The translations under genes and the position numbers were made by a program. From a bacterium (lineage in GTDB: Bacteria > Patescibacteriota > Minisyncoccia > Phycocordibacterales > SBAW01), in NCBI GenBank assembly GCA_037139975.1, contig JBAXFJ010000002.1, positions 90,099-154,098 of the forward strand: a stretch of 64,000 bases of DNA, in the 5' to 3' direction. Positions within the stretch are counted from its first letter, which is position 1, and every line of letters begins with the position of its first letter. This document shows, in pieces, positions 33,837 through 61,575 of the stretch. Under the pieces are notes generated by a model. The model searched no databases. It was not told where the DNA came from and saw only the letters and a list, made by a program, of their open reading frames with translations.

Positions 33837-34508
33837 TTATGATAACCAATCTATCGCCTTTTTACCGTTTTTTTCTAAATACTCATTCGCTTTTTTGAAG
33901 TGCCCGCATCCAAAGAAGCCACTATGGGCAGAAAAGGGCGAAGGGTGGGCAGCTTCTAATACCAAATGTTTTGTGCGGTCTATGTGTGCGCCTTTTTGTT
34001 TGGCATAATTGCCCCAGAGCATGAATACTAGATTCTCTCTTTTTTCTGAAAGTGCTTTGACCACTGCGTCGGTAAACTCTTCCCAGCCTTTGTGTTGATG
34101 CGAGCCAGGGCTATGGGCACGCACGGTTAAAGTCGCGTTTAAAAGCAGCACGCCCTGCTTTGCCCAACGCGATAAATCGCCGCTTTTGTTTTGCATTGGC
34201 TCGCCATACTCCTTTTCAATTTCTTTAAAAATATTTTGGAGCGAAGGCGGGAGCACCACCTCCTCGCCCACTGCAAAGCACAGGCCGTTGGCTTGGCCCG
34301 CGCCGTGGTACGGGTCCTGGCCTAAAATTACCACCTCAACTTTTTCAAAGGGGCAGAGCTCGAAGGCGTTAAAAATATTTTTGGGCATTGGATACACCAC
34401 CCCGCTTTTGTATTCTTGTCTTACAAAACTCGCCAATTCCCCAAAATAAGGCTTTTCAAATTCATCGCCTATCTGCTGCTTCCATGACTCATTAATATTC
34501 ACTTCCAT
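33837..34508 (-). CDS. ung: uracil-DNA glycosylase (family 1)
   Basis: 'VVILGQDPYHGAGQANGLCFAV' and 'HPSPFSAHSGF' UDG motifs. Confidence 0.92.
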   Translation of the reverse strand: MEVNINESWKQQIGDEFEKPYFGELASFVRQEYKSGVVYPMPKNIFNAFELCPFEKVEVVILGQDPYHGAGQANGLCFAVGEEVVLPPSLQNIFKEIEKEYGEPMQNKSGDLSRWAKQGVLLLNATLTVRAHSPGSHQHKGWEEFTDAVVKALSEKRENLVFMLWGNYAKQKGAHIDRTKHLVLEAAHPSPFSAHSGFFGCGHFKKANEYLEKNGKKAIDWLS

Positions 34509-34574
34509 GGCCTTAGTATATTCTTATTTTGAGCCACAAAACAGCTATCCACAGGCTTGGTTGTTAGCACTGAC

Positions 34575-34602
34575 TTGACAATAATGTATATAACTGTATA
34601 AT
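34575..34602 (+). promoter_or_regulatory. near-consensus sigma70 promoter on the plus strand (TTGACA-N16-TATAAT, TG adjacent to the -10)
   Basis: Read directly: 'cTTGACAataatgtatataactgTATAATc'. Nothing annotated downstream on the plus strand except the antisense region of ogt. Confidence 0.5.
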
Positions 34603-34609
34603 CTTGCTA

Positions 34610-34874
34610 GATGTGCTGCAGTGAGCAGCGCTGAAACACCCCGAGGAGGGTTAAATGCGTAAATCAAGTTTCGGCCATCACCGTCTCGCCTCCCAAAAAG
34701 AGGCGTACGAGGCGACAAAGCGTCGCCCCATGAACAGGGCGAGGCCGCTGCTTCAGCGACGGCCTGCGAACAAAAAAGCGCCTAGGCGCACAAGGGGCAG
34801 CACCACGGTGCTGCCCCTCAACATTTCTATATATGCACCCCCTCATCTCGCAGCAGTGCGAGTTTTTTGTTTGC
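34610..34874 (+). ncRNA. candidate ~265-nt structured small RNA or short-ORF transcript antisense to the ogt 3' end
   Basis: Bounded by the consensus promoter at 34575-34602 and a plus-strand intrinsic terminator at 34847-34874 (CTCGCAGCAGTGCGAG + TTTTTTGTTTG). Contains GC hairpins GGCGAC..GTCGCC, GCGCCTAGGCGC and GGGGCAGCA..TGCTGCCCC, and an SD 'GAGGAGGG' before an ATG at 34655. Confidence 0.35.
34768..34819 (-). terminator. intrinsic terminator of ogt (minus strand: GGGGCAGCA-loop-TGCTGCCCC then GCGCCTAGGCGC + TTTTTTGTT)
   Basis: Two consecutive perfect hairpins and a U-tract just downstream of the ogt stop. Confidence 0.55.
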
Positions 34875-35210
34875 CCCACCCCGGTTATAGCCAGAGGGTT
34901 TGCCGTCAGAGCGGATGACGCGGTGACACGGCACTGTTGGATTAAAGTTATGAGACATAATCATCCCCACCGCGCGCGCCGCGTTTGGTTTGCCCGCTTT
35001 GCCCGCCACCTGCTTATAGGTCATCGTTTTGCCTTTGGGGATTTTGGCAACGATTGCATACACACGTGCTGCAAACGCACTTTGAAACACTTTTTTCTTG
35101 GGCGCTTTTTCTGGTTTCACCATTCCTGCAGCAGAGCTGCTAGAAAAGTTGACTGGTCGTTTCTGTTGCATCTTTATAGTTTTCTTTCTTAGCAATCTTT
35201 TTTGGCACAA
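34827..35210 (-). CDS. ogt: methylated-DNA--protein-cysteine methyltransferase (DNA-binding/active-site domain only)
   Basis: 'VPCHRVIRSDGKPSGYNRG' active-site PCHRV motif. Basic N-terminal tail. Start ambiguous: 35210, 35171 or 35126; 35210 overlaps the upstream nuclease by 71 nt. Confidence 0.8.
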   Translation of the reverse strand: MCQKRLLRKKTIKMQQKRPVNFSSSSAAGMVKPEKAPKKKVFQSAFAARVYAIVAKIPKGKTMTYKQVAGKAGKPNAARAVGMIMSHNFNPTVPCHRVIRSDGKPSGYNRGGANKKLALLRDEGVHI

Positions 35211-36006
35211 ACGAAGGGGTTGCTTGCTGTTGCGATTGAGTCAACCCTCCCCCGCCCGGGAGCACCGAGGCGACCGCTTCACGGTATTTGCAATAGTCAC
35301 AGTCTCCCCCCGCAGCGGGTAGAGCGCTGCTGTCGAGGCACGCTTTCAGTTGCACCAAGACGCCATCCACCCAGTCGGTTGAGCCTTTGTACGGCACCAG
35401 GGTGAGTTCGAAATCAAGCCGCCCATCGAACACCTCGCGGTCACGGGTCGCATTGGCATAAAACCAATACCCCATGTCGGACACCTTGAAACCGTTCTGG
35501 CGAAGCAGCCATTGGTATATCTCGAGCTGGCGTTTGTAGCCCCGATGCCACTCTTCATCGAGCGACTCTATCTTCCCGTCTTTGCTGGTCGCTTTATAAT
35601 CAATGACAATCAACTCTCCCGCTGTATTGACCCAAATGTCGTCAACGCCTCCGCGCACCATGAGGCCAGTTTCTTTGTGCAGATGCCGCACGCCCTGACT
35701 GAGCGCATTTCGCCACTCGTCCATCTGCGCATGCGCAAGTGGGACGGCATCGAGGCCATAGGCTTTGGCGAGTGGGTGCTGGGTGCCCTGCGCACGGTGT
35801 ACATCAAGCTCTTTTTTGAGCAATGCATCAACCGCACTGTTGAGGTTGAATGGATAGCCCGGTGGCCGCGCCACACCCAACCTGTTGTCAAGATAAAAAC
35901 ACCGAGCACACTCCATGAAGAGGTCTATTTTTGAGCGAGAAAGGGTCCACTTTGCCCCGCCGTAGCTATAATTTGGATTTCTATGTGGTTTGTAATACTG
36001 ACTCAA
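35140..36006 (-). CDS. PD-(D/E)XK nuclease family protein with Fe-S-type cysteines (Cas4/RecB-nuclease-like, stand-alone)
   Basis: 'GGVDDIWVNTAGELIVIDYK' D...D/E-x-K core and 'QLEIYQWLL' QxxxY motif. N-terminal 'ECARC' and C-terminal 'C-x13-C-x2-C' cysteines as in Cas4/AddB nuclease domains. Confidence 0.6.
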   Translation of the reverse strand: MSQYYKPHRNPNYSYGGAKWTLSRSKIDLFMECARCFYLDNRLGVARPPGYPFNLNSAVDALLKKELDVHRAQGTQHPLAKAYGLDAVPLAHAQMDEWRNALSQGVRHLHKETGLMVRGGVDDIWVNTAGELIVIDYKATSKDGKIESLDEEWHRGYKRQLEIYQWLLRQNGFKVSDMGYWFYANATRDREVFDGRLDFELTLVPYKGSTDWVDGVLVQLKACLDSSALPAAGGDCDYCKYREAVASVLPGGGGLTQSQQQATPSFVPKKIAKKENYKDATETTSQLF

Positions 36007-39391: not shown

Positions 39392-39895
39392 CTAAACAAA
39401 CTTGGAGAACCCACGGATGGCCCCAGCGGCCAATGTCCAACCCTTACCGGTGAAATGATCGGCCGCATGACGAGCGGCAAACTTAACACCGGAACGAGCC
39501 GCTCTCCGTACTTTAGACTTCGTTTCTTCGTCGAGATTCTGGTACGCAGCGCTCACAGACTTTGTGCCCGCTGCCACGTGTTTGGCAACGATAACAATCG
39601 GCGCTGGACTTCTCCGACGAGCCGTGAGGCTCATGAAGAAGCTTACCCAGATGCTCGCCATCATGACAAGCACCATCGCAAACGTTGCGATCAGGACGGT
39701 CGCGTAGTCATTCCACCCGCCCCAAGTAAGGGCTGCGATGAAACCGATCTCACAGGTGACCAGTATGGCCAGAAAGCTTTTGAGTGCCCTGCTAGCACTC
39801 GCAAGCCCTAAGAATGCGCCGACCAGCGTGAGCAGGATCGGCAGCACGTAGACGATGAAGAGGAAACGGCTCATTGGTTTGTTACTCCTTGACAA
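39392..39895 (-). CDS. membrane protein (hypothetical, 3 TM plus basic cytoplasmic tail)
   Basis: Hydrophobic segments and coding-like composition. Confidence 0.4.
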   Translation of the reverse strand: MSRSNKPMSRFLFIVYVLPILLTLVGAFLGLASASRALKSFLAILVTCEIGFIAALTWGGWNDYATVLIATFAMVLVMMASIWVSFFMSLTARRRSPAPIVIVAKHVAAGTKSVSAAYQNLDEETKSKVRRAARSGVKFAARHAADHFTGKGWTLAAGAIRGFSKFV

Positions 39896-40071
39896 CGTTC
39901 AGTTCAGATTCCATTATACCATGATATGTACATATCTGTCAAGTATCCATAAAAGGCTTTAAAATTTGACTTTTAGTGCTTGTGTTGCGAGCTAATTTTG
40001 TTTTTTTATATATACCAGACTTCTTTATCTTACAGAATTTTATGAAAATAAAAATGTCTAACGCAAAAGCA

Positions 40072-56482: not shown

Positions 56483-56647
56483 GTAGACACTCTACCACAT
56501 TTGTGTGGTTACTCTATAAAAAGCAAAAGAGGGACGGACTTAATATTATAAGCCGTCCCTCCACCAAATGATATTCCCTCTTCTGAGGACACACTTGGCT
56601 TAGTCTCTTGGTCTGTTAAAGACATTGCTCTGTTTCAAGATAGTATG

Positions 56648-61197: not shown

Positions 61198-61225
61198 TTG
61201 ACAGGTGTGTCAAATCTGTTATGAT
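61198..61225 (+). promoter_or_regulatory. strong sigma70-like promoter (TTGACA-N16-TATGAT) for the small protein gene at 61292
   Basis: Read directly, in the divergent msrA/small-ORF spacer. Confidence 0.45.
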
Positions 61226-61291
61226 GTGCTTGGATGCCGCAGATCCTGGGCATTTGTTCACCCTTGTTGGGTGCGAAAACAGGAGCAAACC

Positions 61292-61522
61292 ATGCCAGTT
61301 GCGCTTGCAATGAAAGACCCTAGCGACACTGTCGTCGCTGAAAAATTTAGACTACAAACCGTCTACACTATCACGCGGTATGAACAAGACCGCGTCATCT
61401 GCGGTGGGCCGAACGGGGAACAAATCTCCAGTCCACTCGCGTGCCTCGTCAAGCTAACAGTCGGAACCCAGTTCCGCCTCGTCGAGGCAGCTAGTCTCGA
61501 GGGAGGTCTTCGAATCCTCTGA
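61292..61522 (+). CDS. small hypothetical protein (76 aa)
   Basis: 'AGGAG' SD 7 nt before the ATG, promoter upstream, intrinsic terminator downstream. No known motif. Confidence 0.55.
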   Translation: MPVALAMKDPSDTVVAEKFRLQTVYTITRYEQDRVICGGPNGEQISSPLACLVKLTVGTQFRLVEAASLEGGLRIL

Positions 61523-61528
61523 CCACCA

Positions 61529-61575
61529 CCGCCCTTCTTTTGCGCATCAGCGCGAGAGAAGGGCGGTTTTTATTT
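61529..61575 (+). terminator. intrinsic terminator (CCGCCCTTCT..GCGC-atca-GCGC..AGAAGGGCGG + TTTTTATTT)
   Basis: Long GC stem followed by a T-tract immediately after the small ORF. Overlaps the rarA stop region. Confidence 0.6.

Follow-up and report, generated by a model that had tools for sequence, protein, structure and literature searches.

A consensus promoter and a putative antisense RNA in the ogt-ung spacer of an uncultured member of the Patescibacteria

Does the DNA between ogt and ung in an uncultured bacterium specify an RNA of its own, and would such an RNA act on ogt? The question arises from a preliminary description of a 64-kb window (the whole stretch of DNA analyzed here), which proposed that a promoter and a terminator on the plus strand bracket a structured transcript antisense to the 3′ end of ogt. 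The source organism belongs to the Patescibacteria (Paceibacteria) and is of the Adlerbacteria/Kaiserbacteria type; in a species-representative genome collection, the best matches to its Ung protein share 66 to 77% identity and are named Adlerbacteria or Kaiserbacteria. A discrete cis-antisense small RNA (sRNA) of 265 nt is a reasonable hypothesis on the available sequence. The reading that we favor, tentatively and at a level somewhat short of probable, is that the spacer is a young, species-specific noncoding insert at an insertion hot spot, with a promoter that probably gives rise to a plus-strand RNA converging on ogt.

The locus and its promoter

The window contains a conserved block of minus-strand genes encoding a PD-(D/E)XK nuclease (35140-36006), Ogt (34827-35210), and Ung (33837-34508). 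The spacer between ogt and ung spans 34509-34826 (318 nt), and the element studied here consists of this spacer together with the last 48 nt of ogt. The 127-aa Ogt protein matches Pfam PF01035 (E value of 1.9e-29) over the C-terminal methyltransferase DNA-binding/active-site domain only; its PCHR motif is intact, its N-terminal tail is lysine rich, and, as in relatives, it lacks the usual N-terminal domain. The spacer core has a GC content of 0.59, the highest among the intergenic regions of the window (0.21 to 0.56 for the others), and the strongest fold z-score of them all. As we picture it, the insert would be made up of three parts: a divergent promoter region, in which a −10 element beside the ung ATG is paired with an opposite-facing consensus sigma-70 promoter; ~160 nt of GC-rich, palindrome-rich DNA; and the strong intrinsic terminator of ogt, which acts on the minus strand.

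The near-textbook sigma-70 promoter reported in the preliminary description stands up well. On the plus strand, TTGACA-N16-TATAAT (34575-34602; −35 element at 34575-34580, −10 element at 34597-34602) matches the consensus at 12 of 12 positions. When both strands of the 64 kb are searched for TTGACA-N16-18-TATAAT, two perfect sites are found, compared to 0.01 expected from shuffled sequences. The TG said to lie upstream of the −10 element is present and directly adjoins it (TGTATAAT); the intervening base of TGn is absent, and the site is therefore not a canonical TGnTATAAT extended −10 element, nor did the promoter scan count it as one. Transcription is predicted to start at A34609 or G34610. 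The second perfect site, on the minus strand at 39913-39942, is followed by AAGGAG and by the ATG that opens the gene of a 160-aa membrane protein; like an 11/12 match at 61198, it is intergenic and placed ahead of an SD-ORF unit. Since these other top-scoring sites precede real genes, such promoters are probably used in the organism, and by its sequence the promoter at 34575-34602 is very probably genuine. It is the sole strong feature of the element.

The two units behind the other top-scoring sites have features of their own. In the second perfect promoter (window positions 39872-39942, minus strand), the N18 spacer holds a 12-bp palindrome, ATATGTACATAT, a possible operator; the membrane protein behind it is encoded at 39392-39874. 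The small transcription unit at 61198-61572 (plus strand) combines TTGACA-N16-TATGAT, AGGAG, and a 76-aa ORF (61292-61522), ends in a strong hairpin/U-tract terminator (61529-61572), and is wedged between minus-strand msrA and rarA-like ATPase.

On the other side of the spacer, a −10-like TATACT (34515-34520, minus strand) lies 6 nt upstream of the ung ATG (34508). The same arrangement, with TATACT or TATAGT 6 to 8 nt before the ung ATG and no clear SD, is seen in the window and in three relatives (L161, L007, and L001), which suggests a separate promoter for ung and an mRNA without a leader.

Terminators, folding, and coding potential

Downstream of the promoter, the putative plus-strand transcript was described as overlapping the last ~50 nt of ogt and the ogt terminator. 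The measured overlap agrees, taking in the terminator and 48 coding nucleotides. As far as sequence can tell, two traits of a cis-antisense RNA, a promoter of its own on the opposite strand and overlap with its target, are both found here. A clean terminator was also claimed ~265 nt downstream of the promoter. A GC-rich stem-loop followed directly by a U-tract is indeed located at 34847-34874 (plus strand), where CTCGCA-GCAG-TGCGAG (stem-loop at 34847-34862) precedes TTTTTTGTTTG; the stem has 6 bp, including four G-C pairs, the loop has 4 nt, the U-tract reads U6GUUUG, and the feature lies ~264 nt from the predicted start. However, the hairpin is weak (−8.6 kcal/mol, z-score of −1.8, with 11 of 200 shuffled sequences folding equally well) and appears to be largely a by-product of the ogt codons. 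Hairpin and U-tract together sit within the codons for ANKKLALLRD. When the Ogt tail was resampled synonymously with the codon usage of the genome, such a site arose in 16% of cases for stems of at least 5 bp and in 6% for stems of at least 6 bp. A terminator-like antisense site is present at the same position in 2 of 86 other ogt orthologues, and the surrounding 2.5 kb contains 4 terminator-like patterns versus 3.3 expected, which is chance level.

The intrinsic terminator of ogt itself (34766-34818, minus strand) is composed of an 11-bp GC hairpin (34793-34818; −23.8 kcal/mol, z-score of −6.3), the palindrome GCGCCTAGGCGC at 34778-34789, and a UUUUUUGUUCGC tract at 34766-34777. In style, it resembles the terminator of tgt (56483-56647, minus strand); the z-score of −5.3 for that tgt-uvrB spacer comes from a 14-bp hairpin/U-tract terminator typical of the genome. 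The U-tracts at 34766-34777 and 34863-34874 (TTTTTTGTTCGC and TTTTTTGTTTGC) are near-identical 12-mers in inverted orientation, a resemblance that may be accidental or convergent or may stem from a small inverted duplication of the end of ogt.

The full putative transcript (34609-34874, plus strand; 266 nt) folds with −113 kcal/mol and a z-score of −5.4. Most of this signal comes from the terminator of ogt. The GC-rich transcript with three perfect hairpins that had been noted is present in the sequence (34793-34818, 34778-34789, and 34847-34862, plus shorter stems of 5 to 6 bp), but the best of these hairpins belong to the ogt terminator on the minus strand. Elsewhere in the element, a 5′ hairpin of the putative transcript occupies 34613-34631 (plus strand; 7 bp including one U.G pair, −11.9 kcal/mol, z-score of −2.4), and a cluster of GC-rich palindromes or hairpins fills the spacer core at 34670-34765, with no strand assigned.

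With the ogt terminator removed, the plus strand of 34609-34768 folds with −63 kcal/mol (z-score of −2.7) and a poorly defined centroid, versus −72 kcal/mol (z-score of −4.0) for the minus strand. The latter forms a four-way junction in a well-defined ensemble, with a centroid near the MFE structure and helices lengthened by ~8 G.U pairs, each replaced on the plus strand by an A.C mismatch. These properties speak for a functional minus strand, that is, for a structured element located in the ogt 3′ UTR or between the ogt and ung cistrons and serving, for example, as a stabilizer, a processing site, or a regulatory leader. We nevertheless consider a minus-strand element quite unlikely. Its four-way fold shifts upon trimming of the ends, and for 34678-34770 the two strands tie, with z-scores of −2.9 and −2.8. 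By GC skew, the minus strand is the leading strand, and leading-strand mutation pressure can also produce a G.U bias; the G.U pairs, which favor the minus strand, were therefore set aside as a strand call that is both trimming-sensitive and confounded. No Rfam cis-regulatory family matched. Furthermore, the core lies downstream of the strong ogt terminator and upstream of the ung −10 element, and a promoter scan found no promoter-like site on the minus strand of the spacer. This position between the ogt terminator and the ung promoter favors the plus strand, the bearer of the perfect promoter.

If the plus strand is transcribed, its RNA might also be translated. The strong SD with an ATG that had been pointed out is present at 34643-34657 (plus strand): GAGGAGGG at 34643-34650 is followed 4 nt later (5 nt after the GGAGG core) by the ATG at 34655, which opens an 87-codon ORF (34655-34918). 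The ORF could specify a strongly basic orphan protein of 87 aa, or else some shorter peptide, with the transcript acting as an mRNA or a dual-function RNA. In support of such a product, the SD-like motif lies ~46 nt past a perfect promoter, the gene caller of a public collection predicted the ORF, and the window has other small orphan genes with strong promoters. The combination of SD and ATG is unremarkable, however, because GAGG is present five times in this G-rich sequence. The codon-usage log-odds of the ORF (−0.07) falls below 99% of real-gene windows and inside the wrong-frame distribution. No homologue turned up among 5.8 billion protein clusters; when 1.84 billion representatives were scanned exhaustively with HMMER, the ORF itself and one low-complexity sequence were the only hits; and Pfam gave no match. 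The frame runs without a stop through both the −24 kcal/mol hairpin of the ogt terminator and the downstream hairpin/U-tract and is antisense to 92 nt of ogt before it ends at 34918. Homologues, native codon usage, and a stop ahead of the terminator, by which a small protein would be recognized, are all lacking. The preliminary description had likewise rated a protein as less plausible than an antisense sRNA, a short-peptide gene, or a dual-function RNA; the ORF is not a credible protein gene, and we regard the coding interpretation as very improbable.

A second, shorter frame of seven codons (34611-34634, plus strand; ATG TGC TGC AGT GAG CAG CGC TGA, encoding MCCSEQR) begins 1 to 2 nt past the predicted start. 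It would be nearly leaderless, overlaps the 5′ hairpin, and is probably a chance feature.

Conservation and insertion at the ogt-ung junction

Conservation in relatives had been set beforehand as a test of the proposed RNA. For this comparison, 80 genome loci and 80 metagenome loci were collected via Ung and supplemented with the contigs of the closest proteins from a large protein collection (85 to 87% and 100% identity), giving 165 loci in total. One of these, L165, comes from the same genome, as 0 differences over 6666 nt show, and was the sole match to the spacer; setting it aside left 164 related loci comprising 878 kb. The order PDDEXK-ogt-ung is widely kept across the loci. The 318-nt spacer, on the other hand, is missing from the 164 related loci, and the expectation of conservation failed. 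Neither blastn, nhmmer, nor tblastx detected similarity to the spacer core in these loci, including relatives with 83 to 87% Ung identity, and a covariance model built from the 160-nt core as its single sequence retrieved nothing from the window and the 164 loci. Homologues with covarying base pairs, the mark of a conserved noncoding RNA, were not found across the related loci. The pattern is one of presence or absence of a whole insert rather than decay of motifs inside a homologous spacer.

Inspection of the junction in other genomes provides a setting for this pattern. Among 89 loci in which ogt lies upstream of ung, the two genes are adjacent in ~54, with less than 100 nt between them, and ~35 have the junction filled by an inserted ORF. 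The inserted ORFs are mutually unrelated, occur in either orientation, and encode NUDIX, P-loop kinase-like, membrane, and coiled-coil proteins. The window alone among the 89 has a long spacer (at least 200 nt) without a filling ORF. In the closest relatives, ogt abuts ung (L164, Ung identity of 85%, and L081, 83%), a NUDIX gene abuts ung (L162 and L163, both 87%), or a divergent 112-aa orphan gene without a Pfam hit lies between a NUDIX gene and ung (L161, 86%; positions 162-587 of that locus). This last gene is preceded by TTGACA-N17-TAACTT as its promoter and followed by a clean terminator. A common origin of its promoter region with that of the window was considered and not adopted; beyond the hexamers, similarity is just ~60% over ~40 nt and is not decisive. 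The distribution of inserts marks the site between ogt and ung as a hot spot for insertion in the Paceibacteria lineage.

These observations bear directly on the main competitor of our favored reading, namely, that the spacer is the neutral relic of a lost gene cassette that faced away from ung, as in L161. The promoter, SD, and ATG would then be survivors of a gene whose coding part has been deleted or scrambled, the hairpins would be the ogt terminator plus decaying palindromes, and any transcript would be spurious. The frequency of unrelated inserted ORFs at this junction, the divergent promoter, ORF, and terminator in the same slot of L161, and the status of the window as the one long spacer without an ORF are all consistent with a relic. 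So are the restriction of the element to one genome, the promoter-SD-ATG arrangement, which is like that of real genes in the window, and the G.U excess on the minus (leading) strand, which fits C-to-T decay of palindromes. Against this, tblastx shows no trace of a known cassette protein, and descent from the NUDIX, kinase-like, or other cassette genes of the relatives was rejected on that ground; an unused promoter with a perfect 12/12 match would be expected to decay; and, next to the AT-rich spacers found elsewhere in the genome, both GC content and fold z-score are higher than is usual for junk. We judge a relic possible but doubtful.

As a further alternative, the element might be a known structured RNA in divergent form (a housekeeping RNA such as RNase P, SRP, 6S, or tmRNA, or else a ribozyme or riboswitch) or an RNA or DNA structure belonging to a mobile element, in either case one that the available models overlook. 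A strong promoter and a GC-rich, structured body would suit such an RNA, and the RNAs of candidate-phyla bacteria are often atypical. The preliminary description had found no match to SRP RNA, tmRNA, or RNase P RNA, and database searches bear this out: at the gathering score, Rfam 15 identified tRNA-Ala alone in the whole window; at an E value of up to 10, a 600-nt slice (34400-35000) gave chance-level matches only; and ARAGORN detected no tmRNA. A housekeeping RNA would also be expected to show sequence conservation in relatives with ~85% protein identity, even if its locus differed. As for mobile elements, neither a second copy nor terminal repeats of the spacer, as expected of a REP or MITE, were found in the 64-kb window, and homologues were absent from the 878 kb of related loci. 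Phage and plasmid collections contained no match to the spacer, and viral contigs yielded only a chance 19-nt hairpin match with dissimilar flanks. In all, we consider a missed known RNA or mobile element extremely improbable.

Several smaller motifs were examined and rejected. A GTTAAAT core-like site suggested an integron attC, but no RYYYAAC partner was apparent by eye, and the cassettes of the relatives occur in both orientations. A hammerhead-like core, UGAUG...GAAAC (~34668-34685, minus strand), leaves no space for stem II and has no Rfam hit. A DnaA box at 34545-34553 is at chance level, with 16 near-matches in the window versus 10.6 expected, and the promoter spacer does not contain the CTGT-N8-ACAG of an SOS box.

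Candidate mechanism and relation to known systems

Under the favored reading of a young noncoding insert, the consensus promoter most likely fires and would yield a noncoding plus-strand RNA convergent to ogt that crosses the back of the ogt terminator hairpin. Its 3′ end could fall at that hairpin (~210 nt) or at the weak hairpin/U-tract in the last ogt codons (~265 nt). Any effect would be exerted through a 3′ overlap of 50 to 110 nt with the ogt mRNA. One candidate mechanism is the formation of an RNA duplex followed by cleavage by a double-strand-specific RNase; alternatively, converging polymerases might collide. Either route would lower or shape the expression of ogt. The element is evolutionarily young and may have little or no selected function. 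In a stronger version, which we think unlikely, a recently acquired, strongly transcribed, structured noncoding RNA would tune expression of ogt, the gene of a suicide repair enzyme, by way of its 3′ end.

At present, the element is a single-genome orphan with one strong signal, the promoter, and others that are weak or otherwise explained. Should it prove to be transcribed and to have a function, it would count as a rare candidate for a regulatory RNA in the Patescibacteria, a largely unstudied group for which a full-text literature search found no sRNA work, and it would show a new noncoding gene arising where relatives place small protein genes. If it does tune ogt, it would be one of the earliest sRNAs put forward as regulators in this group and would illustrate the birth of an sRNA at a gene-insertion hot spot. 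Its main value is one of caution: antisense "terminators" can arise from codons, and "perfect hairpins" may be the terminator of a neighbor.

If real, the RNA would be an orphan representative of a well-known kind, either a convergent cis-antisense RNA or an intergenic sRNA. Convergent (3′-overlapping) cis-antisense RNAs of bacteria form tail-to-tail transcript overlaps, which RNase III can process. Like them, the putative RNA has its own promoter opposite a protein gene, no credible coding capacity, and a predicted 3′ end inside the 3′ end or terminator of that gene. Unlike them, it is not conserved, overlaps its target only briefly (the terminator and 48 nt within the coding sequence), and would have most of its length (~210 nt) outside the target. 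With orphan intergenic sRNA genes, it shares a consensus promoter, a GC-rich structured body of a few hundred nucleotides, a hairpin/U-tract, and a lineage-restricted distribution, but it differs in that its terminator is weak and embedded in the codons of a neighbor, no seed or target can be named, and no homologue was found. Finally, the element recalls the cassettes inserted between ogt and ung in other Paceibacteria, in particular the 112-aa gene of L161: it occupies the same slot and has a divergent TTGACA promoter near the ung −10 element, followed by an SD and an ATG. In contrast to those cassettes, its frame is not protein-like, contains no stop before the terminators, and has no sequence similarity to any of them.
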